DNA from: Escherichia coli
Lineage (GTDB): Bacteria; Pseudomonadota; Gammaproteobacteria; Enterobacterales; Enterobacteriaceae
DNA length: 64,000 bases
Direction: 5' to 3' (one strand)
Assembly (NCBI RefSeq): GCF_003334405.1
Contig: NZ_QOWM01000012.1
Shown here: positions 2,547 through 47,355 of the stretch, one piece after another
Layout of the letters: the number at the start of each line of letters is the position of its first letter
Position numbering within the stretch: position 1 is the stretch's first letter
Program-made: the position numbers and the translations under genes
The notes under the pieces: generated by a model
What the model saw: only the letters and a program-made list of their open reading frames with translations
The model's database searches: none
What the model was told of the DNA's origin: nothing

Positions 2547-2680
2547 TTATACTCGTCATACTTCAAGTTGCATGTACTGCGACTGCGTTCGTTCACCCCA
2601 GTCACTTACTTATGTAAGCTCCTGGCGATTCACTCGCTTGTCGCCTTCCTGCAACTCGAATTATTTAGAGTATATAAATA
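2538..2680 (-). repeat. ERIC/IRU intergenic repeat
   Basis: Reverse complement contains GTGAATCGCCAGGAGCTTACATAAGTAAGTGACTGGGGTGAACG and ACATGCAACTTGAAGTATGACGAGTATAAATGG, matching the enterobacterial ERIC consensus. Confidence 0.7.
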
Positions 2681-2851: not shown

Positions 2852-3304
2852 TTAATGTTGCGGTTTATATCGCATATAAAAATTAGTAAACCACGCTCCC
2901 CGGCATTCAACGCGCTGCTGCTTAACTGTCTGAAAACCATAACGTTCAAAAAAGGGTTTTGCGGTTATGCTTGCGTCCACCGTAAGTTCGGATTCAGACT
3001 TAATCAAAGGTTTTAACAAAGCGCTGGCAACCCCACGGCGGGTGTATTCAGGGTCAACAAATAACATATCGATATAATGTTCAATGCGGGAAATAAAACC
3101 AACCGGTTGTGCATTAATGATCGCAACCCACACTTGTGATTTCGCGAGTTTCTCCTTCCAGCGAGATTCGTCAATCTGCGCCCAGGCGGAAATTTGTTGT
3201 GGTGAATAATGCTGACTGGCGGTCATCGTAACCGCTCTAATGAAAATAGCGCATAGTTGCTGAAAATCGCCAGGCTGATAGTTTCTTATTTGTATGTTAT
3301 TCAT
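2852..3304 (-). CDS. yafP: GNAT-family N-acetyltransferase YafP
   Basis: 150-aa ORF, last gene of dinB-yafN-yafO-yafP arrangement. Confidence 0.85.
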   Translation of the reverse strand: MNNIQIRNYQPGDFQQLCAIFIRAVTMTASQHYSPQQISAWAQIDESRWKEKLAKSQVWVAIINAQPVGFISRIEHYIDMLFVDPEYTRRGVASALLKPLIKSESELTVDASITAKPFFERYGFQTVKQQRVECRGAWFTNFYMRYKPQH

Positions 3305-3313
3305 AATATAAAT

Positions 3314-3712
3314 TCAAAAACGCATGCGAAACGCTTCTGCCATTTTCCCAATTTTATGCATTTGGTTGTTATCTCGAGCCAGTTTATGAGGTTCAGGTTT
3401 CAGAATGGCAATGAGCAACCATGCTTGCTCATCAAACGCCCCCTGACAATATACCAAATGCGCTTCGTCATTCGTTCTGCTGAATTGGCGCAACTGTGGC
3501 GGAAATGGATTATTCTCATTTGCCAGATGAATATGAGCAACTCGCTCAAATTTGATTAATGGCCAGGTAAAGGAGTCGTCGTAGAGTGCATCGCGACCAA
3601 ATATATCTGGCAAAACACCGTCACGCTTATAGGAAATAAAATCCGCCGTTAACGCATCAAGTTCCTCTGCTGTAAGTTGCAGGCGAATAAGTTTTGTTTT
3701 GAATACCCGCAT
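3314..3712 (-). CDS. yafO: ribosome-dependent mRNA interferase toxin YafO
   Basis: 132-aa ORF directly downstream of yafN, conserved operon position. Confidence 0.85.
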   Translation of the reverse strand: MRVFKTKLIRLQLTAEELDALTADFISYKRDGVLPDIFGRDALYDDSFTWPLIKFERVAHIHLANENNPFPPQLRQFSRTNDEAHLVYCQGAFDEQAWLLIAILKPEPHKLARDNNQMHKIGKMAEAFRMRF

Positions 3713-3714
3713 CC

Positions 3715-4008
3715 TTATTCCTTAAAGTCATTGAAATCATCATCCGTCATATCATTAAGATATTGTTCAGCGCGGCGTGTAATTTCCTCTAATCTTGCAG
3801 CACTTGGACGGAAGCGCGCCTTTATGGGCTTTTTCTCCTCTTGTTCAGCAAGCATGTCCATTAACGCTTCGAATGCGCTGGCACTTAAGAGATATCCTGC
3901 GGGGCGATTATTAGAAAGAACCGCAACCGGTTGATCAATAAAGTATTTAGCTGGGTTTTTACGTAACTCAGTGATATTGACCGATTTTTCAGCGAGAATT
4001 CGATGCAT
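3715..4008 (-). CDS. yafN: antitoxin YafN (Phd/YefM-like)
   Basis: 97-aa ORF between dinB and yafO; acidic C-terminus typical of antitoxins. Confidence 0.85.
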   Translation of the reverse strand: MHRILAEKSVNITELRKNPAKYFIDQPVAVLSNNRPAGYLLSASAFEALMDMLAEQEEKKPIKARFRPSAARLEEITRRAEQYLNDMTDDDFNDFKE

Positions 4009-4059
4009 ACAGTGATACCCTCATAATAATGCACACCAGAATATACATAATAGTATACA

Positions 4060-5115
4060 TCATAATCCCAGCACCAGTTGTCTTTCCATTTGCGGGTCAA
4101 GCAACGTCACATGCAGCCCCACCAGACGCACACCGCGCCCGCCGCGGCGTTCATCCCAGGTTTTACGCGCGGTGGCGATTAGATCAGCTTTATTCAGCCG
4201 CGGCCAGACGTGCTCCTGGGTGGTTTGCTGAAAATCGTCGAACTTTAATTTCACCCCCTGGCGAGCAATCAGTAAATCAGGTTTTACCTTTGCCAGACGG
4301 CGTTCAAGTTCCGGATACAGCCGCTCGATAATCGCTTCACATTCAGACCAGTGATGAATATCTTCCGCCATCGTGCGTTCCACGCCGACGGATTTTCGCA
4401 ACCGTTCGCTGTTAACATCGCGTTCGTCAATCCCCTGACTACGCTCCCACAAAATGCGGCCAAATTTGCCAAAGCGTTTAAGCAGCATCACCAGATCACA
4501 CTTTTGTACATCACCGCAGGTCCGCAGCCCCATCGCTTCCAGTTTTGCCGCTGAGACTTTGCCGACGCCGGGGATTTTTGCCAGCGGTAAGGTTTGTAAA
4601 AATGCCGGAACTTCTGCCGGCGTAATCACAAACTGGCCGTTGGGTTTATTCATGTCGGAGGCGATTTTGGCGAGAAACTTTACTGGTGCCACGCCCGCAG
4701 ACGCCGTCAGTTGCAGCTCGTTGAAGATTGTCTGGCGGATTTCCTGGGCGATGAGGGTCGCAGAACCGTGGCAATGGACGCTATCGGTGACATCGAGATA
4801 AGCCTCATCCAGTGACAACGGTTCAATGCGCGAGGTGTAGCGCGAGAAGATTTCACGGATATGATTTGAGGCTTCTTTGTAGGCGTCAAAGCGCCCCGGA
4901 AGCAAGGTGAGATGTGGGCATAATTTGAGCGCCATCCCTGTCGGCATAGCGCTACGTACGCCAAATTTACGCGCGGGATAATTGGCGGTGCTGATCACCC
5001 CCCGACGTTCGCGGCTGCCGCCAATAGCAATAGGGATATCGCGCAGGGCGGGATTGTCGCGCATCTCCACTGCGGCGAAAAAGCAGTCCATATCCACATG
5101 AATGATTTTACGCAT
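4060..5115 (-). CDS. dinB: DNA polymerase IV (Y-family translesion polymerase)
   Basis: 351-aa ORF starting [22 protein letters not shown], canonical DinB N-terminus. Confidence 0.95.
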
Positions 5116-5129
5116 TGCTCACCTCTCAA

Positions 5130-5149
5130 CACTGGTAAAGTATACAGTG
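5130..5149 (-). promoter_or_regulatory. LexA operator (SOS box) of dinB
   Basis: cactggtaaagtatacagtg = CACTGTATACTTTACCAGTG on the coding strand, CTG-N10-CAG palindrome 15 nt upstream of dinB ATG. Confidence 0.8.
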
Positions 5150-5185
5150 ATTTCAGGGTTTGAGAAATGCGTAAAGATTCAGCAT

Positions 5186-6109
5186 TTAACGCGTTCGCTG
5201 CGAAAGCACCTGCTGCTTATCCAGCTTTTGCACCAGCGGCTGCACCACTTTATCCCCATGCTGACCAAAGTATTGATACAGCGTATCGGACGCACTTTTG
5301 GTCAGCACCATAATCTCAATGCGCCGGTTGCCCGCGCTTTGCGGATTTTTGGAATCCAGCAGCATCTGGTCCGCCATTGCGCTTACCTGCATCACTTTAT
5401 CTTCCGGCATTCCGGCCTCTTCCAGCACCCGACGAGCCGAAAGCGCGCGGTCACCCGAAAGGTTCCAGTTGTTGTAGATATTGTTTTTGTAGGCCATCGC
5501 ATCGGTATGCCCGGTAATAATAATTTTATTATCGAGCGAGTCGAACACTGGCGCGAGCTCCACCAGCAGCGTTTTAAAGAACGGCATAATCTTCGCGCTG
5601 CCGCGTTCAAACATATTGCGGTTCTGGTCGTCTTTAATCAGCACGCGTAATCCCTGGGGAACAATCTCCATCTCCAGATTCGCTTCCATATGCGCATCAC
5701 GGGCAATGGTGTTGATACTGGTTGCCAGCTCACCAAGCTCGGTGGCGGATTTCTTCTTCAGCAGCGCCGTTTTCTCATTCACATCACGCGCTTTTTTCTC
5801 CGTCTCTTCCGGCACCGCCACGGTGGCAGGTTTTGGCGGATGAGACGGGCTGATTTTATTTAACGGCGACAGCCCACCACCGTTAAAAATCGACTGCCCG
5901 TGCAGCGCGGCGATAATGCTTTCACGCTCGGATTTACTGACGCTGTTGACAATCCACAGCGTCATAAACAGCGCCATCATTGCCAAAGTAAAGTCGGCGA
6001 ACGCCACCTTCCACGCCCCGCCGTGGTGCCCGGCATGATTCTTTTTGATCTGCCGCCGGACGATGGTGGTTTTTGCCCCACGATCGCGGCGGTTACCCGT
6101 CTTTCTCAT
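5186..6109 (-). CDS. lafU: lateral flagellar stator protein LafU (MotB-like)
   Basis: N-terminus ...HGGAWKVAFADFTLAMMALFMTLWIV matches the MotB TM/plug region; C-terminal OmpA-like domain; ATG placed at MRKTGNRR 2 nt after lafT stop. Confidence 0.85.
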   Translation of the reverse strand: MRKTGNRRDRGAKTTIVRRQIKKNHAGHHGGAWKVAFADFTLAMMALFMTLWIVNSVSKSERESIIAALHGQSIFNGGGLSPLNKISPSHPPKPATVAVPEETEKKARDVNEKTALLKKKSATELGELATSINTIARDAHMEANLEMEIVPQGLRVLIKDDQNRNMFERGSAKIMPFFKTLLVELAPVFDSLDNKIIITGHTDAMAYKNNIYNNWNLSGDRALSARRVLEEAGMPEDKVMQVSAMADQMLLDSKNPQSAGNRRIEIMVLTKSASDTLYQYFGQHGDKVVQPLVQKLDKQQVLSQRTR

Positions 6110-6111
6110 GC

Positions 6112-6975
6112 TTATTCTTGCTCCAGCATCGCATTCACCCACGCGTCGAGGTTGGCGAAGGTCGGTTTGGACGCCAGATGCAGTAGCTTACGCCCGGCGT
6201 CCACCGCCAGCAGCGTCGGTTTGCCGCCTGCCTGCGCCACCAGCACGGTACGCACGCATTCCAGCAAAGAATGTTCTGCCCGCGCCTGTTGTTCCATGGC
6301 GTTGGCGAGTGGGTCCATCAGGCAGTAGCAGATAAAGACGCCTAAAAATGTCCCCACCAGCGCTGCCGCCACTTTCAGGCCAATCAGGGCGATAGAGCCG
6401 TCAATCGACTGCATGGTGATGATGATGCCCAACACCGCCGCACAAATGCCAAACCCCGGCATCGCTTCGGCGGTACGTTGCAGCGAGCGCGACGGCGTTA
6501 GCAGCGACTCTTCCGCGGTGTCCAGTTCCTGATCGAGAATGCCTTCCAGTTCATGGGCGTCGATTTTACCCATCGCCATCAGGCGAAAGTTATCGGCAAT
6601 AAAGGTCACCAGCCGCTTCTGGGTTAACACCAGCGGGTATTTCTGGAAAATGGTGCTCTCTTCCGGTTGCTCAATATGTTGATCCAGCATGCGCAGACCA
6701 CCGTTTTGCACCATTTCGAGTAACTCATACAGGCACATTAATAGCTGGCGCTGAAACTCCGGCCCGAGCTGTTTTTTACTGATTACGCCTTTAATTTGAT
6801 GGGCAATCTCTTTCAGCACATGTTTCGGGTTACCAATAATCATCGCCCCGAAACCGGCACCCAAAATAATGATCATTTCCGCCGGTTGCCAGATAGCCAC
6901 TAATTGCCCGCCCGCTTCAAAATAACCGCCAAATACGCAGCCGAGCACCACCAGTAAACCTAATATTTTTTGCAT
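6112..6975 (-). CDS. lafT: lateral flagellar stator protein LafT (MotA-like)
   Basis: 287-aa multi-TM protein upstream of and coupled to MotB-like gene. Confidence 0.85.
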   Translation of the reverse strand: MQKILGLLVVLGCVFGGYFEAGGQLVAIWQPAEMIIILGAGFGAMIIGNPKHVLKEIAHQIKGVISKKQLGPEFQRQLLMCLYELLEMVQNGGLRMLDQHIEQPEESTIFQKYPLVLTQKRLVTFIADNFRLMAMGKIDAHELEGILDQELDTAEESLLTPSRSLQRTAEAMPGFGICAAVLGIIITMQSIDGSIALIGLKVAAALVGTFLGVFICYCLMDPLANAMEQQARAEHSLLECVRTVLVAQAGGKPTLLAVDAGRKLLHLASKPTFANLDAWVNAMLEQE

Positions 6976-6987
6976 GATTTCTTCACT

Positions 6988-7704
6988 TTAATTCGGATAG
7001 ACAAAATCACGAATTTTCTGCGCGATCTGTTTATTCAGTTGACAAATTCGGGCCTCGGTTAGCCCTAATACCAGCGCAATCTCTTTGAGATTCATCTCAT
7101 GCTGGTAATACATGGAGAGGATCAGTTGCTCTTTTTCGCTTAATTGTGAAAGCGCCTGTTGCAGCATTTGCTGGGTGACAAACTGATCTTCCAGCTCCCT
7201 GCCAGCAAGCAGAATGCCAGGCCCTTCGCCGTTCAGCAGTTCGTCCAGGCTGGCGAGCGTTTCCGCCCCTTCCAGTTGCTGATATTCGAGATAATCTTCA
7301 TGCGAGATCCCTTCCACGGCCAGTTCTGACCACTCCGGTTCGTGCCCCAGTTTTTTGCGCGTTTCGCGAATCAGATCTTTCATCTGATGATATTTCTGTC
7401 GCAGCTGGCGCGGTCGCCAGTCGAGAGCGCGCAGCTCATCCAGGATCGCGCCGCGAATACGGTGCACGGCATAGCCCGCAAAACCTTCGTCCGGCAGCCC
7501 GTAGCGACGGATGGCATTAAGCAGCCCCATTAACGCCGTTTGTTCCATATCCTGACGATCAATAATGCAATTACACTGCGGGGCAAGTTGCCGCACCACT
7601 TTACGCACCAACGGTAAATAGGCCTGCAAGTAGTGGCTCTCCTGCTGCGGGGTTAATACCGGCGCGGCAGCAAATTCTTCCGACTCGAATACATCCTGTA
7701 GCAT
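6988..7704 (-). CDS. lafS: lateral flagellar sigma factor LafS (FliA/sigma-28 family)
   Basis: 238 aa; sigma-70 region 2/4 like segments and C-terminal HTH (LKEIALVLGLTEARICQL). Confidence 0.85.
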   Translation of the reverse strand: MLQDVFESEEFAAAPVLTPQQESHYLQAYLPLVRKVVRQLAPQCNCIIDRQDMEQTALMGLLNAIRRYGLPDEGFAGYAVHRIRGAILDELRALDWRPRQLRQKYHQMKDLIRETRKKLGHEPEWSELAVEGISHEDYLEYQQLEGAETLASLDELLNGEGPGILLAGRELEDQFVTQQMLQQALSQLSEKEQLILSMYYQHEMNLKEIALVLGLTEARICQLNKQIAQKIRDFVYPN

Positions 7705-11486: not shown

Positions 11487-11585
11487 GCCTGATGCGCTGC
11501 GCTTATCAGGCCTACAAGGTTTCTGCAATATATTGAATTTGCAATATTTTGTAGGCCGGATAAGGCGTTCACGCCGCATCCGGCA
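11487..11585. repeat. REP pair (BIME) between lafA and lafB
   Basis: gcctgatgcgctgcgcttatcaggcctac and gtaggccggataaggcgttcacgccgcatccggca. Confidence 0.7.
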
Positions 11586-25922: not shown

Positions 25923-25938
25923 CGGCACGCTTATTGCA
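25923..25938 (+). promoter_or_regulatory. sigma-54 (-24/-12) promoter upstream of unknown gene
   Basis: CGGCACGCTTATTGCA: GG-N10-GC, one mismatch to TGGCACG-N4-TTGCA; ~35 nt upstream of ATG 25973. Confidence 0.5.
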
Positions 25939-25972
25939 CATCCTGCACAGCATTAAAGACTGGAAGCCACCT

Positions 25973-26902
25973 ATGAGTTTTATTGAATGTTACGAACCGG
26001 AATACGTGCGCAATTTTATGACGCAATACCCCGGTTCGCCTTTATACGTCCGCAAGGTGTGGAAAAACGAGATTCGCCTGAGCCTGATGCTGACAGAGCC
26101 AGAAAGCTGCGAAGCGATGCTCAACGATGTCAGGGCCTTTGATTTACAGCTCACCTACCGTCCTGTGGAAGAAAATGCCGCAGAGCTTTCCGCGCGCGAT
26201 GCGATAGTAAACCAGGTGATTTTGAGTACCCTCACGCTCCGTGATTTAACACCAGAACTGTCATTGTATGCCGTCGGTATCCTGCTCTCCCGCGCCAGTA
26301 AAATGCCGGGCAGAGACGGAGATATTCTTGCCCGTTTGACGACGCTGCCGCAGGCGCTGGCCGATCATGCGAAAAAAGGCATCCTACAGGCACAGTTCGC
26401 CCAGCTGCCGCCCGTGCCACAGCTGGTGCGTCACCTGGCCACGTTACTCGGGAGTTTTACGTTTGACTGGTCGATTTTGCCGGAAAGCCCGCGCAAAACT
26501 TCGCTGCCGTTGCAGATGCCTTTGCTGACGCTGCATGACGCTAACAGCGAAGCCCTGTTACAACAGCAGCTTCAGACGCAGTGGCAAACCACCTGGCAAC
26601 AGCATTTTGCCACCGCGCCCTGGATGATGCGTAACTGGCTGATTTACCGCGTTTACCACGATGTGATTGGGCAGACTGACGGGGCGGATTATTTCCCGCT
26701 GGTGTGCGATTTTTATCTCCTCCGCACGTTAATCAGTTTATGGACGCTGGATGGTTCTTCGCTGCGGCAGGAGGATATTTTCGCCCTCTTTGCCATGTTT
26801 GAACGCTGGCGAGCCAGTGAAAATGCGCTGTTGGTTCGCCAGCAAATTCAGTCGTTATGTGCCGCCGACCCGCTGCTTTCAGCGTTTTCGCTGCTAACGT
26901 GA
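25973..26902 (+). CDS. hypothetical protein (309 aa) of the Flag-2 embedded modification module
   Basis: ORF with RBS GGAAG, start MSFIECYEPEY; no motif I can recognise; preceded by sigma-54 promoter. Confidence 0.6.
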   Translation: MSFIECYEPEYVRNFMTQYPGSPLYVRKVWKNEIRLSLMLTEPESCEAMLNDVRAFDLQLTYRPVEENAAELSARDAIVNQVILSTLTLRDLTPELSLYAVGILLSRASKMPGRDGDILARLTTLPQALADHAKKGILQAQFAQLPPVPQLVRHLATLLGSFTFDWSILPESPRKTSLPLQMPLLTLHDANSEALLQQQLQTQWQTTWQQHFATAPWMMRNWLIYRVYHDVIGQTDGADYFPLVCDFYLLRTLISLWTLDGSSLRQEDIFALFAMFERWRASENALLVRQQIQSLCAADPLLSAFSLLT

Positions 26903-26904
26903 GT

Positions 26905-27047
26905 CGCTCTGTGCGCGCTTTGCCCCTCACCCTAACCCTCTCCCCAAAGGGGCGAGGGGACCGATCGAGCACAGTGTTAAAATCGGCGCTGATTTTCTCC
27001 CTCTCCCTGTGGGAGAGGGTTGGGGTGAGGGCATCAGCGCGCACATT
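26905..27047. repeat. ~140-bp GC-rich composite palindromic element (MITE-like)
   Basis: Arm cctcaccctaaccctctcccc (26925-26945) vs gggagagggttggggtgagg (27012-27031) are reverse complements with one mismatch; outer tgtgcgcgc / gcgcgcaca also inverted. Confidence 0.5.
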
Positions 27048-27080
27048 CATCACATTCACCCATTAACTCACCCAAACACC

Positions 27081-29525
27081 ATGCCAACACCAACCATCAT
27101 CAAAACACTCAACACCCACCGCGAAAAACCGTTTGTCAGCGTCGTCACGCCAACCTGGAACCGCGGCGCATTCCTGCCGTACCTGCTCTATATGTACCGC
27201 TATCAGGATTACCCGGCAGACCGCCGCGAACTCATCATCCTCGACGATTCCCCACAAAGCCATCAACACATCATCGACCGCCTGACCAATGGCACGCCGG
27301 AAGCCTTTAACATCCGCTACATCCATCACCCGGAAAAACTGCCGCTGGGCAAAAAACGCAACATGCTCAACGAACTGGCGCGCGGCGAATACATCCTCTG
27401 CATGGACGATGACGACTACTACCCGGCAGATAAAATCTCTTACACCATCGCCATGATGCAAAAACACCGGGCGCTCATCTCCGGCTCCGATCAGATCCCC
27501 ATCTGGTACAGCCACATCAACCGCATCTTTCAAAGCCGCAGCTTTGGCCCGCATAACATCCTCAACGGCACCTTTTGCTATCACCGTAACTACCTGAAAA
27601 AGCACCGTTACGACGATGATTGCAATTTAGGCGAAGAGAAACGTTTCACCGACAATTTCAGCGTAAACCCGCTGCAACTGCCCGGCGAGCGCACGATTCT
27701 GTGTATCTCGCATAGTCAAAACACCTTTGATAAAGATTTTATTCTCGGGGCCAGCACGCCAGTAAACGCGGCGCTTACGGATATCGTCCGCGATCCGCTG
27801 CTGCGCAATGCTTATCTGAGTCTGCATAACGCCACTCATCACCAGGCGATCAACCATCAGGCGATCGATCAGATCGTTCTGCTGAATCTGGATAAACGCC
27901 CGGATCGCTTACAACAGATCCGTGAAGAACTGGCATTGCTGCATATTCCACCTGAGAAGATCACCCGCCTTGCCGCCAGTGAAGATGAAAACGGTCAACG
28001 GGGCCGCCGTCAGTCGCACTTACAGGCGCTGCGCCTGGCGCAACAGCACGGCTGGCAAAACTACCTGCTGCTGGAAGATGACGCGGTTATTCTCAAGCAG
28101 GAGAAACATATTCAGGTACTGAACACGCTGCTGGCGAGCCTGGCGAAAATTCCCTGGCAGGTGATGATCCTCGGTGGCGAAATTTCGCAGGGAACGATGC
28201 TAAAAAGTTTGCCGGGGCTGGTGCACGCGCGGGACTGCCGCAAAGTGTGCGCGTATCTGGTGAACAGCCGCTACTACCCGCAACTGGCGCAGCAGATGAG
28301 CAACGATGAGCACTCGCTGGAAGCCTGCTGGCAGCCGCTGCTACGCGCCGACAAATGGCTGGCCTGTTACCCGAGCCTTTGCTACCAGCGACCGGGTTTT
28401 AGTGATATCGAGAAAAAAACGACTGATAATATTGCTCACTATTTCAATAAGTTACCCGTAGCCACCAAGCCATCTACATTACCCATCGCCGATACCATCG
28501 GCTTTTTTATGGAAACCTCATTCCACTACACGCTGTACCGCCCAATCATCACCGCTCTACAGGCGCAGGGGCAGAGCTGCACACTAGTGATCAATGACCG
28601 CGTGTTTAAACCGTTTCTTGATGAGATGCTGGAAACACTGAAAAACATCGACGATCCGCAGCTTAAAGGTATGCGTCTGTCAGAAATGCAGACACATGGT
28701 CAGCGGGTGAAATGCCTGGTCAGCCCCTACCACACGCCTGCGCTCAATGGCCTGGCGGCGGTGAACATCCGCGCTATGTACGGCTTAGCCAAAGAGACGT
28801 GGAACCACGCCGACTGGAATCGTTTTTACCAAAGCATTTTGTGTTATAGCCACTACAGTCAGCAGGCGCTGGCGCATTTCGGCAGCGCAAAAGTGGTCGG
28901 CAACCCGCGCTTCGACGCCTGGCATAACGGCACGTTCGATCGCGCGTTGCCGGAAAACATCCAATCAGATTACCGTAAACCTACGGTGCTCTATGCCCCA
29001 ACGTTTAGCGCATTAAGCTCCCTGCCCCACTGGGCTGAAAAATTGGGCCGCTTGAGCGGTGATGTGAACCTGATTTGCAAACTGCACCATGGCACCTGCT
29101 CACGCCCGGAAGAAGCAGCATCGCTGGCCCTGGTGCGCAGGCATTTAAAACAGCGCACCGACTCCGCCCGCCACACGCTGGCGCTGCTGGCAAAAGCCGA
29201 TTACGTGCTGACCGATAACAGCGGGTTTATTTTCGATGCTATCCACGTTGATAAGCGGGTGATCCTGCTCGACTTTCCGGGCATGAATGATTTGCTCGAC
29301 GGTGAGAAAAGTTATTCCACGGCAGAGAGCGCCGACCAGCGAATCCGCGAAATATTGCCGGTTGCTCATGATGTTGCAGAACTGCGTTATTTGTTGTCAG
29401 AGGCGTTTGACTGGGGGTCGGTGCAGGCGCGGCTTACGGAGATTCGCCATCACTATTGCGATGCGTTTATGGATGGCAAGGCGGGAGAACGGGCGGCGAT
29501 TGTGATTGTGGAGGCGCTGGGGTAA
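27081..29525 (+). CDS. three-domain glycosyltransferase / glycerophosphotransferase (GT2-like + GT25-like + TagB/TagF-like)
   Basis: N-term GT-A signature VSVVTPTWNR...ILDDSP...CMDDDDYY (DxD); central domain IVLLNLDKRPDRLQQIREEL... resembles family-25 transferases; C-terminal ...VLYAPTFS...KLHHG...VLTDNSGFIFDAIHVDKRVILLD resembles CDP-glycerol glycerophosphotransferases. Confidence 0.8.
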   Translation: MPTPTIIKTLNTHREKPFVSVVTPTWNRGAFLPYLLYMYRYQDYPADRRELIILDDSPQSHQHIIDRLTNGTPEAFNIRYIHHPEKLPLGKKRNMLNELARGEYILCMDDDDYYPADKISYTIAMMQKHRALISGSDQIPIWYSHINRIFQSRSFGPHNILNGTFCYHRNYLKKHRYDDDCNLGEEKRFTDNFSVNPLQLPGERTILCISHSQNTFDKDFILGASTPVNAALTDIVRDPLLRNAYLSLHNATHHQAINHQAIDQIVLLNLDKRPDRLQQIREELALLHIPPEKITRLAASEDENGQRGRRQSHLQALRLAQQHGWQNYLLLEDDAVILKQEKHIQVLNTLLASLAKIPWQVMILGGEISQGTMLKSLPGLVHARDCRKVCAYLVNSRYYPQLAQQMSNDEHSLEACWQPLLRADKWLACYPSLCYQRPGFSDIEKKTTDNIAHYFNKLPVATKPSTLPIADTIGFFMETSFHYTLYRPIITALQAQGQSCTLVINDRVFKPFLDEMLETLKNIDDPQLKGMRLSEMQTHGQRVKCLVSPYHTPALNGLAAVNIRAMYGLAKETWNHADWNRFYQSILCYSHYSQQALAHFGSAKVVGNPRFDAWHNGTFDRALPENIQSDYRKPTVLYAPTFSALSSLPHWAEKLGRLSGDVNLICKLHHGTCSRPEEAASLALVRRHLKQRTDSARHTLALLAKADYVLTDNSGFIFDAIHVDKRVILLDFPGMNDLLDGEKSYSTAESADQRIREILPVAHDVAELRYLLSEAFDWGSVQARLTEIRHHYCDAFMDGKAGERAAIVIVEALG

Positions 29526-38856: not shown

Positions 38857-39129
38857 ATGTTGACCGTAGACGTTGCCGCCGACATTGTCGCCAGCGGCAT
38901 AAAAGTAGTGATTTTGCTGGTTTCGGTACTGGTGGTGCCGAGTTTGCTGGTCGGCCTGCTGGTGAGCGTGTTCCAGGCGGTAACGCAGATTAACGAACAG
39001 ACCCTGAGCTTTTTGCCGAGGCTGATTGTCACGCTGGTGGTGCTGGGCGTGTGCGGCAAATGGATGATTATCCAGTTGCATGATCTCTGCATTCACCTGT
39101 TTACCCAGGCCGCCCTGCTGGTGCATTAA
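38857..39129 (+). CDS. lfiQ: export gate protein LfiQ (FliQ-like)
   Basis: 90 aa, two TM helices. Confidence 0.9.
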   Translation: MLTVDVAADIVASGIKVVILLVSVLVVPSLLVGLLVSVFQAVTQINEQTLSFLPRLIVTLVVLGVCGKWMIIQLHDLCIHLFTQAALLVH

Positions 39130-39913: not shown

Positions 39914-41042
39914 CAGCAGCGAAGAAAAAACAGAAAAACCCTCGGCGCAAAAGCTGCGTAAAGCGCGTGAAGAGGGGCAACTGCCGCGCTCGAAGGATAT
40001 GGGGCTGGCGGCGAGCCTGTTTGCGGCGTTTGTGGTGATCTCCAGCAGCTTCCCGTGGTATGCCGATTTTGTGCGCGAGAGTTTTATCAGCGTGCATCAG
40101 TACGCGCAGGAGATTAATAACCCGGAGGTGATCGGCCAGTTTCTGCGCCATCACCTGTTAATACTCGGCAAGTTTATTCTCACCTTGCTGCCGATGCCCG
40201 CTGCCGCGCTACTCTCTTCGCTGGTGCCCGGCGGCTGGCTGTTTCTGCCGAAAAAAATCCTCCCGGATTTCAGCAAAATCAGCCCGTTAAAAGGCATTGG
40301 GCGGCTGTTTTCCAGTGAACATCTGGCGGAAACGGGAAAGATGACGGTGAAGTCGGTGGTGGTGCTGGTGATGCTGTGGGTAAGCCTGCGCAATAACTTT
40401 GCCGCCTTTCTCGGCCTGCAGGCGCTACCGTTCAAACTGGCGATGAATGAGGGTTTATCGCTCTACGCCTGCGTGATGCGCAACTTTGTCATCCTGTTTA
40501 TCTTCTTTGCGTTAATCGACGTGCCGCTGGCGAAAGCCCTGTTTACCAAAGGGCTGAAGATGACCAAACAGGAGCTGAAAGAAGAGTATAAAAACCAGGA
40601 AGGCAAGCCGGAAGTGAAGGCGCGCGTGCGGCGTCTGCAACGGCAGTTGGCGATGGGGCAAATTCGCAAAGTGGTGCCGAAAGCCAACGTGGTGATCACC
40701 AACCCGACCCACTACGCCGTGGCGTTGCAGTATGACTCGTCGCGCGCCGCCGCGCCGTTTGTGGTGGCGAAAGGCACCGATGAAATCGCCCTCTATATTC
40801 GCCAGGTCGCCGCTGAGAATCAGGTGGAAGTGGTCGAGTTCCCGCGACTGGCGCGCTCGGTTTACTACACCACCCAGGTGAACCAGCAAATTCCGTTTCA
40901 GCTTTACCGGGCCATCGCCCACGTTCTGACCTACGTCCTGCAAATGAAACACTGGCGCGAGGGTGCACAGCCGCGCCCGGCCCTGAACAGACATATTTCC
41001 ATTCCCAAAGAGGTGCTTAAACTGGATGGCGAAAACAACTAA
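39903..41042 (+). CDS. lfhB: export switch protein LfhB (FlhB-like)
   Basis: 379 aa; NPTH autocleavage motif (VITNPTHYAVAL). Confidence 0.9.
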   Translation: MADSSSEEKTEKPSAQKLRKAREEGQLPRSKDMGLAASLFAAFVVISSSFPWYADFVRESFISVHQYAQEINNPEVIGQFLRHHLLILGKFILTLLPMPAAALLSSLVPGGWLFLPKKILPDFSKISPLKGIGRLFSSEHLAETGKMTVKSVVVLVMLWVSLRNNFAAFLGLQALPFKLAMNEGLSLYACVMRNFVILFIFFALIDVPLAKALFTKGLKMTKQELKEEYKNQEGKPEVKARVRRLQRQLAMGQIRKVVPKANVVITNPTHYAVALQYDSSRAAAPFVVAKGTDEIALYIRQVAAENQVEVVEFPRLARSVYYTTQVNQQIPFQLYRAIAHVLTYVLQMKHWREGAQPRPALNRHISIPKEVLKLDGENN

Positions 41043-43119
41043 ATCGTTCCTCGCGCTGCTGCGCGGCGGCAATCTCGGCGTGCCGCTGGTGATCCTGTGT
41101 ATTCTGGCGATGGTTATTTTGCCGCTGCCGCCTGCGCTGCTGGATATTCTGTTCACCTTCAACATTGTGCTGGCGGTGATGGTGCTGCTGGTGGCGGTGT
41201 CGGCGAAACGACCGCTGGAATTCAGCCTGTTCCCGACCATTTTGCTGATCACCACCTTAATGCGCCTGACGCTTAACGTTGCTTCTACGCGCGTGGTGCT
41301 GCTGCACGGGCATCTCGGCGCGGGCGCGGCGGGTAAGGTGATTGAGTCGTTTGGTCAGGTGGTGATCGGCGGCAACTTTGTCGTCGGCTTCGTGGTGTTT
41401 ATCATCCTGATGATCATCAACTTTATTGTCGTCACCAAAGGGGCCGAGCGTATTTCCGAGGTTTCTGCCCGCTTTACCTTAGACGCGATGCCCGGCAAAC
41501 AGATGGCGATTGACGCCGATCTTAACGCCGGATTGATCAACCAGGCGCAGGCGCAAACCCGGCGTAAAGATGTTGCCAGCGAGGCCGATTTCTACGGCGC
41601 GATGGACGGGGCATCGAAGTTTGTGCGCGGGGACGCCATCGCCGGGATGATGATTCTGGCGATCAACCTGATCGGCGGCGTCTGTATCGGGATCTTCAAA
41701 TACAACCTGAGCGCCGATGCTGCCTTCCAGCAGTATGTGCTGATGACCATCGGCGACGGCCTGGTGGCGCAGATCCCTTCCCTGCTGCTCTCCACCGCGG
41801 CGGCGATTATCGTCACCCGCGTCAGCGACAACGGCGATATCGCCCATGACGTGCGTAACCAGCTGCTGGCAAGCCCGTCGGTGCTCTACACCGCCACCGG
41901 GATTATGTTCGTGCTGGCGGTGGTACCGGGAATGCCGCACCTGCCGTTTTTGCTGTTCAGCGCCCTGCTTGGTTTTACCGGCTGGCGGATGAGCAAACAG
42001 CCGCTGGCGGCGGAGGCGGAAGAGAAAAGCCTCGAAACGCTGACCCGCACCATCACCGAAACCAGCGAGCAGCAGGTCAGTTGGGAAACCATTCCGCTGA
42101 TCGAGCCTATCAGTTTAAGCCTCGGTTACAAACTGGTGGCGCTGGTGGACAAAGCACAGGGTAACCCGCTCACCCAGCGGATTCGCGGCGTGCGGCAGGT
42201 GATTTCTGACGGCAACGGCGTGCTGCTGCCGGAGATCCGCATTCGGGAAAACTTCCGCCTTAAGCCCAGTCAGTACGCCATTTTCATCAACGGCATAAAG
42301 GCTGATGAAGCGGATATTCCGGCGGATAAACTGATGGCCCTGCCCTCCAGCGAAACCTACGGCGAGATTGACGGCGTGCAGGGGAACGACCCGGCGTACG
42401 GGATGCCGGTCACCTGGATCCAGGCGGCGCAGAAAGCGAAGGCGCTGAATATGGGGTATCAGGTGATCGACAGCGCCAGCGTGATCGCTACCCATGTAAA
42501 TAAGATTGTGCGCAGCTATATTCCTGATTTGTTTAACTATGATGATATTACGCAGTTGCATAACCGTTTATCGTCGACGGCACCGCGTCTGGCGGAAGAT
42601 TTGAGCGCGGCGCTCAATTACAGCCAGTTGCTGAAAGTGTACCGGGCGCTGCTGACCGAAGGCGTTTCCCTGCGCGATATCGTCACCATCGCCACCGTGC
42701 TGGTCGCCAGTAGCACGGTGACGAAAGATCATATTCTGCTGGCGGCCGATGTGCGCCTGGCATTGCGGCGCAGCATTACCCATCCGTTCGTTCGCAAGCA
42801 GGAGCTGACGGTGTATACGCTGAATAATGAGCTGGAAAATCTGCTGACCAACGTGGTGAATCAGGCGCAACAGGGCGGGAAAGTGATGCTCGACAGCGTG
42901 CCGGTCGATCCGAATATGCTCAACCAGTTCCAGAGTACGATGCCACAGGTGAAAGAGCAGATGAAAGCGGCGGGGAAAGACCCGGTGCTGCTGGTGCCAC
43001 CGCAGCTGCGCCCTTTGCTGGCGCGTTATGCAAGGTTGTTTGCGCCGGGGCTGCATGTGCTGTCGTATAACGAAGTGCCGGATGAGCTGGAGTTGAAGAT
43101 TATGGGGGCGTTGATGTAA
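41026..43119 (+). CDS. lfhA: export apparatus protein LfhA (FlhA-like)
   Basis: 697 aa; N-terminal 8-TM domain and cytoplasmic domain, FlhA family. Confidence 0.95.
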   Translation: MAKTTKSFLALLRGGNLGVPLVILCILAMVILPLPPALLDILFTFNIVLAVMVLLVAVSAKRPLEFSLFPTILLITTLMRLTLNVASTRVVLLHGHLGAGAAGKVIESFGQVVIGGNFVVGFVVFIILMIINFIVVTKGAERISEVSARFTLDAMPGKQMAIDADLNAGLINQAQAQTRRKDVASEADFYGAMDGASKFVRGDAIAGMMILAINLIGGVCIGIFKYNLSADAAFQQYVLMTIGDGLVAQIPSLLLSTAAAIIVTRVSDNGDIAHDVRNQLLASPSVLYTATGIMFVLAVVPGMPHLPFLLFSALLGFTGWRMSKQPLAAEAEEKSLETLTRTITETSEQQVSWETIPLIEPISLSLGYKLVALVDKAQGNPLTQRIRGVRQVISDGNGVLLPEIRIRENFRLKPSQYAIFINGIKADEADIPADKLMALPSSETYGEIDGVQGNDPAYGMPVTWIQAAQKAKALNMGYQVIDSASVIATHVNKIVRSYIPDLFNYDDITQLHNRLSSTAPRLAEDLSAALNYSQLLKVYRALLTEGVSLRDIVTIATVLVASSTVTKDHILLAADVRLALRRSITHPFVRKQELTVYTLNNELENLLTNVVNQAQQGGKVMLDSVPVDPNMLNQFQSTMPQVKEQMKAAGKDPVLLVPPQLRPLLARYARLFAPGLHVLSYNEVPDELELKIMGALM

Positions 43120-43342: not shown

Positions 43343-43840
43343 TTATGAAATGATACGCTCCCCGGCACTAAAATCCGTTACGTCCCCCGCCCAATCGATG
43401 GGATATAACCCTCGCGCGACATCGCGATGGAACGTTGAGAATGGCCAATCACTCACTTGCTTTACCCAACCATGCTTTACTGGATTTATATAAATATAAT
43501 CAACATGATGCCTATAATCTTTGGTATTGCGGATGGCGTGCTCCCAAAAACGTGGTTGCCAGATATTTTTCAATCCACAAGCATGGGTAAATTGCTTTTT
43601 AATTTCCCGCCAGCGCGAGGAAAAATCATCATCGCCTTCAGGTAATGTCCAGATACAGTGCATATGCTCTGGCAAAACGACCCAGGCGTTGATTTCAAAA
43701 GGCCTGTCTCGCTTAACTTTAATAATGGCGTGACGGAGCATCTGGTACTGGGTGGTCAAAAGTTGGCTTCGACGATTTCGTAAATTCACCGTGAAAAACC
43801 ATGTTCCCCCCTTGATGTAATAACGACGATATTCAGACAT
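43343..43840 (-). CDS. rayT: REP-associated tyrosine transposase RayT (TnpA-REP)
   Basis: 165 aa starting MSEYRRYYIKGGTWFFTV; HUH-family motif (LPEHMHCIW); flanked on both sides by BIMEs. Confidence 0.85.
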   Translation of the reverse strand: MSEYRRYYIKGGTWFFTVNLRNRRSQLLTTQYQMLRHAIIKVKRDRPFEINAWVVLPEHMHCIWTLPEGDDDFSSRWREIKKQFTHACGLKNIWQPRFWEHAIRNTKDYRHHVDYIYINPVKHGWVKQVSDWPFSTFHRDVARGLYPIDWAGDVTDFSAGERIIS

Positions 43841-43919: not shown

Positions 43920-44025
43920 AAATATTCGCGGGCTCGTAGGCATGATAAGACGCGCCAGCGTCGCATCAGGCACCTGCGTACAACTGCCGGATGCGGCGTA
44001 AACGCCTTATCCGTCCTACAAAATC
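43920..44025. repeat. REP pair (BIME)
   Basis: gtaggcatgataagacgcgccagcgtcgcatcaggcacc ... ctgccggatgcggcgtaaacgccttatccgtcctac. Confidence 0.7.
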
Positions 44026-44765
44026 GTCTCTTCCGTCAAAATCCTGCGCGCGCCCAAAAAATGGTCCTGCCAGAAAGGTTCGGCTAATCGGCTTATCCGA
44101 ATGGTTTCGCCGGTACGTGGCGACTCGATAAATTGCCCATCGCCCAAATACACGCCCATATGATCGGCTATCTCGCGGCTGTGGATATGGAAAAACAGCA
44201 AATCTCCCCGGCGCAGGTCGTTGTTCGCCACAATCGTTGCCCGGCGATAGTGGTACATCTCATTGGCCGTGCGCGGGAGCTTAGCCTCAAGGATCTTGTT
44301 GTAGGCATAAAAAACCAACCCGCTACAGTCAAAGCCTTTATCAGGCCGCGTACCGCCCCAGACGTAAGGCTTGCCAAGCTGCTGCTCCAGGCGGTGAATC
44401 GCCACTTCGGTAATGTTATGCAGATGGTCGCTGCTTAAAAAGTGGTTGTTTTCCGCCAGCGCCTGCCAGCGTCTGTCACTCGCCTTGAGCGGAGCAGGAA
44501 ACCATTCTGGATGCTGTTTTATCTGCTCCCGGTTGTGCTGGCGTAGCGCCCTTTTGCTTTCGGCATTGCCTTCCACAATATAGCTGGCCTGCTTTTTCAG
44601 ATGAGTTTGGTACTGTTTTAATAAACGCGCACGGTTTTGCATCCGCTGGCGGGCGGCGTAGCTGAAAGAGATATGTGATGTGGTGGCGCTGGCAAATGAA
44701 GAAAACGGCAAACAAATCAACAGTAATCCCGACAATACAAAGGATGGAATCGACGGCAAGGACAT
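44016..44765 (-). CDS. yafL: NlpC/P60-family peptidoglycan endopeptidase lipoprotein YafL
   Basis: Start set at MSLPSIPSFVLSGLLLICLPFSSFA; C-terminal NlpC/P60 domain with Cys (...GFDCSGLVFYAY) and His. Confidence 0.8.
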   Translation of the reverse strand: MSLPSIPSFVLSGLLLICLPFSSFASATTSHISFSYAARQRMQNRARLLKQYQTHLKKQASYIVEGNAESKRALRQHNREQIKQHPEWFPAPLKASDRRWQALAENNHFLSSDHLHNITEVAIHRLEQQLGKPYVWGGTRPDKGFDCSGLVFYAYNKILEAKLPRTANEMYHYRRATIVANNDLRRGDLLFFHIHSREIADHMGVYLGDGQFIESPRTGETIRISRLAEPFWQDHFLGARRILTEETIL

Positions 44766-44942
44766 ACTCAATAATGGCTGGTCATGCTTTAATGTTGCAG
44801 TGTATCCCGGATCGTTTCTGAACAAACTTAATAAACCATTATTATAAAATTAACATATATATTTCAGTTAATTATGTAAAAACATCCGTTTATTAAATTA
44901 CTCATGGATTGTCGCTGTTGCTCATTTGAGCTACAATTCAAG

Positions 44943-44958
44943 CTGAATAAATATACAG
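44943..44958 (+). promoter_or_regulatory. LexA-box-like operator upstream of dinJ
   Basis: CTGAATAAATATACAG (CTG-N10-CAG) 17 nt upstream of dinJ ATG. Confidence 0.55.
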
Positions 44959-44974
44959 CACAGGAGATACCCCA

Positions 44975-45235
44975 ATGGCTGCTAACGCGTTTGTTCGCGC
45001 CCGAATCGATGAAGATCTGAAGAATCAGGCAGCGGACGTACTGGCCGGGATGGGGCTGACCATCTCTGACCTGGTTCGCATAACCCTCACAAAGGTCGCG
45101 CGTGAAAAGGCATTGCCGTTTGATTTACGCGAGCCTAATCAATTAACCATTCAATCAATCAAAAACAGCGAAGCTGGCATTGATGTTCATAAGGCCAAAG
45201 ACGCCGATGATTTATTTGATAAATTAGGAATTTAA
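44975..45235 (+). CDS. dinJ: antitoxin DinJ
   Basis: 86-aa RHH-type protein immediately upstream of yafQ. Confidence 0.85.
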   Translation: MAANAFVRARIDEDLKNQAADVLAGMGLTISDLVRITLTKVAREKALPFDLREPNQLTIQSIKNSEAGIDVHKAKDADDLFDKLGI

Positions 45236-45237
45236 AT

Positions 45238-45516
45238 ATGATTCAAAGGGATATTGAATACTCGGGACAATATTCAAAGGATGTAAAACTTGCACAAAAG
45301 CGTCATAAGGATATGAATAAATTGAAATATCTTATGACGCTTCTTATCAATAATACTTTACCGCTTCCAGCTGTTTATAAAGACCACCCGCTGCAAGGTT
45401 CATGGAAAGGTTATCGCGATGCTCATGTCGAACCGGACTGGATCCTGATTTACAAACTTACCGATAAACTTTTACGATTTGAGAGAACTGGAACTCACGC
45501 GGCGCTCTTTGGGTAA
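45238..45516 (+). CDS. yafQ: RelE-family mRNA interferase toxin YafQ
   Basis: 92 aa, start 3 nt after dinJ stop. Confidence 0.85.
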   Translation: MIQRDIEYSGQYSKDVKLAQKRHKDMNKLKYLMTLLINNTLPLPAVYKDHPLQGSWKGYRDAHVEPDWILIYKLTDKLLRFERTGTHAALFG

Positions 45517-47214: not shown

Positions 47215-47345
47215 TCGGATGCGGCGTGAACGCATTATTCGGCCTACGGTTCGCGTACAGATTTGTAGGCATGATAAGACGCGTCAGCGTCGCATCAGGC
47301 ATCAGCGCACAAATGCCGGATGCGGCGTAAACGTCTTATCCGGCC
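47215..47345. repeat. BIME (REP cluster)
   Basis: tcggatgcggcgtgaacgcattattcggcctac ... gtaggcatgataagacgcgtcagcgtcgcatcaggcatc ... gccggatgcggcgtaaacgtcttatccggcctac. Confidence 0.7.
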
Positions 47346-47355
47346 TACGCCAGAC

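Follow-up and report, generated by a model that had tools for sequence, protein, structure and literature searches.

The lafU-dinB junction of Escherichia coli beside an intact Flag-2 cluster: tandem gene order and a predicted hairpin around the LexA-regulated dinB promoter

Gene order and its described counterparts

The dinB-yafN-yafO-yafP SOS operon of E. coli K-12 was reportedly described by McKenzie 2003 and Singletary 2009, and the Flag-2 lateral-flagellar locus of E. coli 042 is said to have been reported by Ren et al. 2005. A LexA-type box at dinJ-yafQ was reportedly first noted by Lewis et al. 1994. To our knowledge, everything published on dinB regulation was obtained with K-12-type strains, whose lafU lacks a promoter. 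In the strains investigated to date, Flag-2 itself is reported to be silent or inactivated (PMC6993521).

We analysed a 64-kb stretch of E. coli DNA (referred to as the window) in which these loci lie next to each other. The genes concerned are:

2852..3304, minus strand: yafP, GNAT acetyltransferase, last gene of its operon (NCBIfam NF007338)
3314-3712, minus strand: yafO, toxin (NCBIfam NF007377, above the curated cut-off)
3715-4008, minus strand: yafN, antitoxin (NCBIfam NF007300, above the curated cut-off)
4060..5115, minus strand: dinB, DNA polymerase IV (351-aa ORF; WP_001226164.1 in RefSeq, 100% identical genome)
5186..6109, minus strand: lafU, MotB-like lateral flagellar stator protein (NCBIfam NF005273 and RefSeq annotation)
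6112..7704, minus strand: lafT (MotA-like) and lafS (FliA/WhiG-type sigma factor) (NCBIfam TIGR03818 and NF009091, above cut-off)
41026-43119: lfhA, 697-aa ORF, equal to FlhA in the annotation of matching genomes
43343-43840, minus strand: rayT (NCBIfam NF047646)
44016-44825, minus strand: yafL (RefSeq annotation of an identical stretch)
44975-45235, plus strand: dinJ, antitoxin (NCBIfam TIGR02384, above the curated cut-off)
45238-45516, plus strand: yafQ, toxin (NCBIfam TIGR00053, above the curated cut-off)

LafU reaches 578.6 bits on NF005273 (cut-off 383), and DinB is 85-100% identical to DinB of the 80 Enterobacteriaceae loci listed. The gene order is the standard one of E. coli, gpt-pepD-prfH / yafP-yafO-yafN-dinB / Flag-2 / rayT-yafL / dinJ-yafQ. 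dinB is the first gene of the dinB-yafN-yafO-yafP operon, which lies entirely on the minus strand. lafU, with its stop codon at 5186-5188, is the last gene of Flag-2 cluster 3. It is preceded on the same strand by lafT and lafS, and the three genes are tightly packed with intergenic gaps of 2-12 nt. That the dinB SOS operon adjoins lafU is an arrangement already known and mapped in E. coli.

The dinB operon of K-12 has the same gene order and the same operator (Christensen-Dalsgaard 2010, PMC2814082), and identity is 100% from yafP through the dinB promoter and LexA box into the 3' 770 nt of lafU. K-12 however retains only a lafU fragment without 5' end and promoter, whereas here lafU is full length and lafT and lafS stand before it. 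In this genome, a transcription unit lying upstream can hence continue into the dinB promoter. The dinJ-yafQ operon consists of the same genes as the described E. coli operon, with the same LexA-type box just past the -10 region and no difference in sequence.

Flag-2 and the flanking toxin-antitoxin cassettes

Flag-2 is intact in the window. It extends over 38 kb from lafU (5186) to lfhA (43119), with lafS-lafT-lafU on the dinB side and lfhA on the rayT side, and is followed by rayT and yafL before dinJ-yafQ is reached. The bounds at lfhA and lafU are those of Flag-2 in E. coli 042 and other Enterobacterales (De Maayer et al. 2020, PMC6993521). The endpoints of the K-12-type deletion are located inside lfhA and lafU, the latter at ~5955-5957, and K-12-type genomes match the query only up to positions 2955-2958. 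Whether or not Flag-2 is intact, 99% of complete E. coli genomes (5388 of 5426) share the lafU-dinB junction. Being near-universal and identical in K-12, the junction represents ancestral synteny: the 38-kb lateral-flagellar cluster is ancestral and the K-12 state is a deletion. lafS-lafT are present in 1302 of the 5426 genomes, and Flag-2 has been lost in ~76%.

Both flanking cassettes are of type II. yafN-yafO lies within the dinB operon, antitoxin first and with a 2-nt gap, while dinJ-yafQ (44975-45516, likewise with a 2-nt gap) is an operon of its own which is transcribed away from Flag-2. It starts 1.8 kb from the end of lfhA (43119) with rayT and yafL on the opposite strand in between. 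The initial annotation had stated that dinB-yafN-yafO-yafP and dinJ-yafQ bracket Flag-2 and rayT. The coordinates agree with this, yafL being a further gene between them. A view of the flanking operons as a meaningful unit is not supported, given a junction shared by nearly all E. coli and two cassettes that are both accessory. yafNO is found in 2834 of the 5426 complete genomes (52%) and dinJ-yafQ in 3326 (61%); the Flag-2 end and yafNO occur together in 406. A variable yafNO content has been described before (PMC3105422), and yafP directly follows dinB in other genera as well as in those E. coli genomes that lack yafNO.

A functional tie of the cassettes to Flag-2, either by stabilising the island against deletion or by co-regulation, would fit their position on either side of the island in the window. 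Against it, the cassettes have outlasted Flag-2, which is gone from K-12 and from about three quarters of the genomes, and yafNO is rarer among genomes with intact Flag-2 (31%) than among those without (59%), which argues that the bracketing is not a functional unit. In many strains dinJ-yafQ is absent or hicAB occupies its place, and outside Escherichia yafNO is found beside dinB in only one Pseudocitrobacter species among the loci listed. We thus consider such a tie highly improbable, and a role of the cassettes as island stabilisers was rejected on the co-occurrence counts. Both cassettes would rather flank Flag-2 through the shared ancestry of a variable chromosomal neighbourhood than as a unit of the island.

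LexA sites and the tandem lafU-dinB junction

The regulatory sites at both operons are:

5149..5130, minus strand: dinB LexA operator CACTGTATACTTTACCAGTG, 20-nt imperfect palindrome, core CTG-N10-CAG at 5132-5147
5139..5166, minus strand: predicted sigma-70 promoter of dinB, -35 TTCTCA at 5166-5161, 16-nt spacer, -10 TATACT at 5144-5139 (consensus scan)
44941..44960, plus strand: LexA-type box AGCTGAATAAATATACAGCA in the dinJ promoter, core CTGAATAAATATACAG at 44943-44958

The bare pattern CTG-N10-CAG occurs 22 times in the window compared to 13.9 +/- 3.6 expected matches. It is uninformative and was rejected as evidence for LexA binding. Sites were instead scored with a weight matrix derived from 18 LexA boxes of the literature, with the dinB and dinJ sites excluded. 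The dinJ box scores 22.5 bits, above the best match in 200/200 simulated windows. The dinB box reaches 13.8 bits, which is near the random maximum (11.8 +/- 2.3 in 200 simulated windows) and at the lower limit of the scores of the 18 sites behind the matrix. Its credibility comes from its identity to the K-12 site, which has been studied experimentally, and from its conservation across genera of Enterobacteriaceae. A putative LexA box has been published for the yafN-proximal promoter. No site within 4009-4059 is among the top 15 matrix matches (<5.9 bits), and this low score agrees with the report that no SOS response is seen there (PMC2814082).

The predicted -10 of dinB is located within the LexA box, which overlaps the transcription start as well; judged from the conserved -10, the start is probably near 5132. 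CTTCTCA and TATACT at a spacing of 16-18 nt are kept in most of the 80 dinB loci listed, as is the layout with the operator over the core promoter. Different genera among the loci listed share a conserved -35 CTTCTCA, LexA box and Shine-Dalgarno sequence, whatever gene lies upstream. In the reading we favour, dinB is transcribed from a sigma-70 promoter of its own with the LexA operator covering -10 and start, and co-transcription of yafN, yafO and yafP from it renders yafNO SOS-inducible.

The flanking operons had both been called SOS-controlled. For yafNO this holds by way of the dinB promoter only, as its mRNA increases with mitomycin C only when that promoter is present (PMC2814082). For dinJ-yafQ membership in the SOS response is contested in the literature: LexA binds the promoter and deletion of lexA raises dinJ 2-3-fold (PMC6015884); DNA damage and ciprofloxacin did not induce the operon (PMC2826370, PMC4996492). 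Its box starts 4 nt after the predicted -10 TACAAT (44932-44937). In the same reading, dinJ-yafQ is a separate, autoregulated operon with a strong LexA-type box over its start and at most weak SOS responsiveness.

The lafU stop codon and the dinB LexA box are separated by 36 nt, close to the ~35 nt given initially. lafU, dinB, yafN, yafO and yafP are all encoded on the minus strand, so that lafU and dinB are arranged in tandem, and the dinB promoter follows the lafU stop at a distance of 14-47 nt. The initial annotation had assumed convergent lafU transcription into the dinB operator, where polymerase collision or antisense RNA might alter SOS induction. Proximity is what this model has in its favour. 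The strand assignment leaves no convergent transcription unit at the junction, and we rejected the model on these grounds as next to impossible. Since both genes are co-directional, any effect of lafU transcription on dinB would be read-through and not collision.

No terminator-like site was found at 5100-5190 of the minus strand, a stretch that takes in the interval from the lafU stop to the dinB operator, nor is an intrinsic terminator predicted that would end lafU transcripts before 5150. A large hairpin in this region is followed by AAAAUCAUUC and no U run, and does not qualify as an intrinsic terminator. A search of the lafU-dinB spacer against Rfam gave no match at E <= 1. Without an intrinsic terminator between the two genes read-through is plausible. 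In a strain expressing Flag-2, RNA polymerase that finishes the lafS-lafT-lafU transcript would enter the dinB promoter, and an arrangement in which this transcription unit runs into the promoter without a terminator applies to about a quarter of E. coli genomes. Literature on lafU or mbhA together with dinB returned only strain-construction markers and nothing about read-through; dinB occurs 0 times in the text of PMC6993521, and the literature searched gave no link between Flag-2 and dinB regulation.

Taken together, we consider it likely that the region is a standard one, with lafU and dinB in tandem, a LexA-gated dinB operon, a separate dinJ-yafQ operon and no island unit. The non-convergent orientation and a bracketing that is not tied to the island remove the lead from the toxin-antitoxin operons to Flag-2. 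Read-through from lafU into dinB bears on the insulation of SOS genes against adjacent genes: it could change the amounts of YafO toxin and of a mutagenic polymerase, or be neutralised by the predicted hairpin.

An inverted repeat around the dinB promoter

The dinB promoter is bracketed by the following element:

5107..5175, minus strand: 15-nt inverted repeat (5107-5121 / 5161-5175), arms complementary at 14/15 positions

The 5' arm TTTACGCATTTCTCA (5175-5161) lies upstream of the inferred dinB start and contains the -35. Within the 3' arm TGAGCAATGCGTAAA (5121-5107) lie the end of the dinB leader beside the Shine-Dalgarno sequence, the ATG (5115-5113) and codons 2-3; the bases of the Shine-Dalgarno sequence pair deeper, inside a larger predicted hairpin (5182..5098). 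As RNA, this 85-nt hairpin has a folding energy of -27.5 kcal/mol compared to -12.3 kcal/mol for shuffled sequences (z = -6.1), and 0/200 shuffles were as stable. Three repeats with at least 88% complementarity are found in the window, namely the dinB repeat and two REP pairs.

Opening of the dinB ribosome site is predicted to require 16-18 kcal/mol in a read-through RNA and 6.8 kcal/mol in an RNA from the predicted start. For this difference in opening energy, the Escherichia loci rank 1, 2, 3 and 8 among the 80 loci listed, which do not include E. fergusonii, E. albertii and E. marmotae. Several genera without lafU upstream (Enterobacter cloacae complex, Pluralibacter) show a similar difference, and the baseline is already ~6 kcal/mol. 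The outer stem is absent outside Escherichia in the loci listed. Within ten Escherichia sequences the arms are invariant and loop positions vary. No compensatory changes were seen in the arms, as invariant arms leave nothing to covary. Their invariance is no evidence for RNA pairing either, because the arms overlap elements under constraint in any case, namely the -35, the ATG with the first codons, and the Shine-Dalgarno sequence.

The geometry is that of a fold-back element: the 5' arm precedes the transcription start and the 3' arm lies over ribosome site and ATG, the stability is beyond chance, and according to the folding prediction the ribosome site is occluded selectively in the long transcript. 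Transcripts derived from lafU would carry the 5' arm which is missing from native dinB mRNA. Pairing of this arm with the dinB Shine-Dalgarno sequence and ATG would leave such transcripts poorly translated for DinB, and synthesis of Pol IV would thereby remain dependent on LexA cleavage. That the hairpin serves to bury the dinB ribosome site in lafU-derived transcripts is a tentative proposal from modelled folds. Doubtful in our view is the wider model in which the repeat acts as a translational insulator, untranslated dinB may meet Rho polarity and Pol IV would be strictly LexA-gated.

Alternatively the inverted repeat has no role as RNA and is a by-product of the complementarity of the -35 (TTCTCA) and the Shine-Dalgarno sequence (TGAGAGG), extended by chance or by a match that matters at the DNA level. 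We regard this as close to an even call. Both motifs are conserved in genera with an ordinary fold (z near 0), covariation is not seen among the ten Escherichia sequences, and among the loci listed only those of Escherichia have the outer 9-bp match TTTACGCAT / ATGCGTAAA. Such a by-product sits less well with complementarity at 14 of 15 positions, equalled within 64 kb only by the two REP pairs, and with the z-score of the fold. Moreover, it is in the genus with a gene adjoining the promoter without a terminator that the extension is most pronounced, whereas in several other genera the dinB promoter is preceded by hairpins or REP-like elements. A match at the DNA level might be, for example, a UP-like element or the binding site of another regulator.

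Read-through could also be productive, such that switching on the lateral-flagellar regulon would lead to LexA-independent expression of DinB and/or YafN, YafO and YafP, and surface motility would be linked to the level of a mutagenic polymerase or of the toxin-antitoxin pair. The lack of an intrinsic terminator between lafU and dinB is in line with this, as are the separate ribosome sites of yafN, yafO and yafP and an untranslated RNA of only 70 nt, which is presumably too short for efficient Rho loading. In such transcripts, however, the predicted hairpin adds ~10 kcal/mol to the opening of the dinB ribosome site, operator-bound LexA could act as a roadblock, and Rho-dependent polarity would be favoured if dinB is left untranslated. 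Productive read-through is hence unlikely in our estimation.

For the insulator function, the nearest known system is IS10/Tn10, for which Davis, Simons and Kleckner 1985 reportedly described protection from external promoters ('fold-back inhibition'). The present locus differs in that the protected gene would be a chromosomal SOS polymerase gene and not a transposase, with a function predicted from folding alone. It resembles IS10 in that the gene's own promoter starts transcription inside the potential stem-loop, and the 5' arm, which pairs with ribosome site and start codon, is present only in transcripts that enter from outside. If the insulator reading is true, the dinB repeat would represent a chromosomal counterpart of the protection of IS10 against outside transcription.

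Gene order at the two ends of Flag-2

The interval 4060-5190 comprises the dinB gene with its promoter. According to the initial annotation lafU is transcribed convergently towards dinB. The genes from lafS to yafP are instead arranged in tandem, all on the minus strand, and any influence of lafU on dinB would therefore be a co-directional read-through. Likewise dinJ-yafQ does not adjoin the lateral-flagellar cluster Flag-2. It is located 1.8 kb past lfhA with two opposite-strand genes intervening, and its transcription points away from the cluster.

Genes flanking Flag-2 (window positions; yafP to lafS according to listed ORFs and to RefSeq annotation for an E. coli genome with 100% identity)
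2852-3304, minus, yafP
3314-3712, minus, yafO
3715-4008, minus, yafN
4060-5115, minus, dinB
5186-6109, minus, lafU
6112-6975, minus, lafT (motA-like)
6988-7704, minus, lafS (fliA-like)
41026-43119, plus, lfhA, opposite end of Flag-2
43343-43840, minus, rayT, next after lfhA
44016-44825, minus, yafL, between rayT and dinJ
44975-45235, plus, dinJ, beyond yafL
45238-45516, plus, yafQ, after dinJ

LafU, LafT, LafS, YafP, YafO, YafN, DinJ, YafQ and RayT all score above the curated cut-offs of their NCBIfam models. Two large ORFs (322 and 838 aa; 25934-29525, plus strand) are found mid-Flag-2; the middle of the cluster is a site of variable 'cargo' regions (PMC6993521). Between yafP and the rtcB-fragment/prfH genes, on the same strand and just upstream of the RtcB fragment, the Vibrio RNA AS5 model (V_AS5) matches over its full length at 2552-2675 (minus; E = 4e-8), sub-threshold with 46.5 bits against an Rfam gathering score of 96. 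This element may represent a small RNA or a structured leader that belongs to the rtcB-prfH module.

Toxin-antitoxin cassettes and Flag-2 across genomes

Presence was counted over 5426 complete E. coli genomes. The junction of the lafU 3' end with dinB, identical in K-12, occurs in 5388 of them, yafNO (yafN-yafO) in 2834 (52%), dinJ-yafQ including its box in 3326 (61%) and lafS-lafT, representing an intact Flag-2 end, in 1302 (24%). Flag-2 end and yafNO coincide in 406 genomes. Calculated from these counts, yafNO is rarer with Flag-2 (31% of Flag-2-positive vs 59% of Flag-2-negative genomes), and all four presence-absence combinations are found; variable yafNO content has been published before (PMC3105422). 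The K-12-type deletion removed ~5958-41400 and left 5'-truncated remnants of lafU and lfhA placed back to back; owing to its truncation this lafU fragment is without its own promoter. Other E. coli strains carry a hicAB toxin-antitoxin pair in the dinJ-yafQ slot (44930-45516, between yafL and dpaA (yafK)) or leave it empty. The slot acts as a site where toxin-antitoxin cassettes are exchanged.

The cross-species set consists of 80 species-level dinB loci, not including E. fergusonii, E. albertii and E. marmotae. Among the loci listed, lafU is immediately upstream of dinB in Escherichia only, and yafNO accompanies dinB outside Escherichia only in Pseudocitrobacter vendiensis. Five Citrobacter species have lafT-lafU on the dinB strand with an extra ORF of 226 aa between lafU and dinB. 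In these Flag-2-positive Citrobacter the ORF is Cys-rich, on the same strand, and ends ~65 nt before the dinB ATG (L015, 2255-2935; similar spacing in L019, L022, L025 and L028). In Escherichia sp. E1V33 (L002, 4108-4882) yafN is kept, yafO is absent and yafP begins 35 nt past yafN, making this yafN an orphan antitoxin within the dinB operon.

Bracketing of Flag-2 by the cassettes as a functional unit is thus contradicted by the junction, cassette and Flag-2 counts as well as by the cross-species loci. Based on the genome counts and the 80-locus comparison, we interpret the flanking as shared ancestry in a variable neighbourhood.

LexA boxes and SOS control

The dinB LexA box CACTGTATACTTTACCAGTG is located at 5149..5130 (minus), 36 nt from the lafU stop (5186-5188), and the dinJ box CTGAATAAATATACAG at 44943-44958, both as initially annotated. 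By itself the CTG-N10-CAG pattern carries no information (22 occurrences across the window vs 13.9 +/- 3.6 expected). For this reason we derived a weight matrix from 18 further E. coli LexA sites known from the literature, excluding dinB and dinJ. The dinJ site reaches 22.5 bits, exceeding the best score in each of 200 simulated windows. With 13.8 bits the dinB site ranges at the bottom of known sites and near the random maximum (11.8 +/- 2.3). It is credible on other grounds, because it is the same as the experimentally studied K-12 site, covers the predicted -10 (TATACT, 5144-5139; predicted -35 TTCTCA, 5166-5161) and belongs to an arrangement conserved across genera: -35 CTTCTCA, LexA box and Shine-Dalgarno recur in dinB loci of many Enterobacteriaceae genera, regardless of the upstream gene.

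The second-best score in the window (16.0 bits) belongs to AAATGGATGATTATCCAGTT within Flag-2 (39058-39077, plus), which lacks the CTG half-site and is probably due to chance. It is located at the end of a 90-aa ORF (38857-39129), presumably FliQ by size and position, just ahead of the next ORF (39080). Some Enterobacter, Leclercia, Silvania and Klebsiella (L021, L038, L043, L047, L066, L067, L072, L075, L078) have an upstream region of dinB (120 nt) that is of another type, unrelated to the first. Its box differs, e.g. TACTGTATATAAATACATGT at a distance of 30 nt from the ATG, and its -35-like motif reads TGACGC. This suggests that the promoter was replaced or that these dinB loci are paralogous.

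Published data support the label 'SOS-controlled' solidly for yafNO only. Its mRNA rises with mitomycin C only when the dinB promoter is present, the yafN-proximal promoter being autoregulated and not SOS-responsive (PMC2814082). For dinJ-yafQ the published evidence conflicts: LexA binds the promoter, and lexA deletion leads to a 2-3-fold increase (PMC6015884), but induction was absent with DNA damage or ciprofloxacin (PMC2826370, PMC4996492). Taken together, the initial observation is real yet re-describes an already known arrangement, while its interpretation has the wrong orientation and overstates dinJ-yafQ SOS control and the cassette-island link.

An inverted repeat at the dinB promoter and read-through from lafU

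On the minus strand no terminator-like site was detected by sequence scan from the lafU stop to dinB, nor did folding of the region reveal a G+C hairpin followed by a U tract. Since, moreover, lafS, lafT and lafU are tightly packed (gaps of 2-12 nt), polymerase leaving lafU should reach the dinB promoter in a Flag-2-expressing strain. Our literature search found no publication on such read-through, and dinB goes unmentioned in the comparative study of Flag-2 (PMC6993521).

A 15-nt inverted repeat (14/15 complementary) frames the dinB promoter. The 5' arm TTTACGCATTTCTCA (5175-5161) comprises the -35 together with the 9 nt that precede it, the 3' arm TGAGCAATGCGTAAA (5121-5107) the last leader bases by the Shine-Dalgarno, the ATG and codons 2-3. 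The resulting 85-nt RNA hairpin (5182..5098) carries the LexA palindrome at its tip and folds with -27.5 kcal/mol vs -12.3 +/- 2.5 in dinucleotide shuffles (z = -6.1; 0/200 shuffles as stable). Nine inverted repeats of this class occur in the 64-kb window, three with at least 88% complementarity, the other two of which are REP pairs. These two REP/BIME-like pairs (GCCTAC / GTAGGC, GGATAAG type) are located at 11502-11564 and 47265-47348, one within Flag-2 and the other past yafJ. The spacer between lafU and dinB matches no Rfam family.

The inferred dinB start (~5132) falls in the hairpin loop, and the native mRNA would therefore be without the 5' arm. For RNA that runs in from lafU, the computed energy needed to open the ribosome site (-13 to +6) is 16-18 kcal/mol; for RNA beginning at the predicted start it is 6.8 kcal/mol. 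Productive read-through, be it for DinB or for the genes downstream, appears improbable. Over the 80 loci listed the median opening-energy difference is 5.9 kcal/mol, the four Escherichia loci ranking 1, 2, 3 and 8. Fold z-scores are -4.6 to -6.2 in Escherichia, -2.3 to -5.6 in Citrobacter and the Enterobacter cloacae complex, and -1.9 to +0.8, mostly near 0, in most other genera; several of the other genera have a hairpin or REP-like element ahead of the dinB promoter instead.

The hairpin might act as an insulator of dinB, a tentative model to which we give a rather low probability. A comparison of ten Escherichia sequences shows variation at nearby positions of the loop and the lafU terminus and none in the two arms, which is consistent with an insulator, not diagnostic of it; no compensatory change was seen in the arms of these sequences. 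The arms coincide with -35, Shine-Dalgarno, ATG and coding sequence and are already constrained, and some lineages without upstream lafU show similar energy differences among the 80 loci listed. The explanation that the repeat merely follows from the motifs of promoter and ribosome site, or acts at the DNA level, is given slightly less than an even chance. The insulator model has a counterpart in IS10, where 'fold-back inhibition' prevents transposase expression from outside transcripts; the repeat architecture of the dinB promoter matches that of this system.
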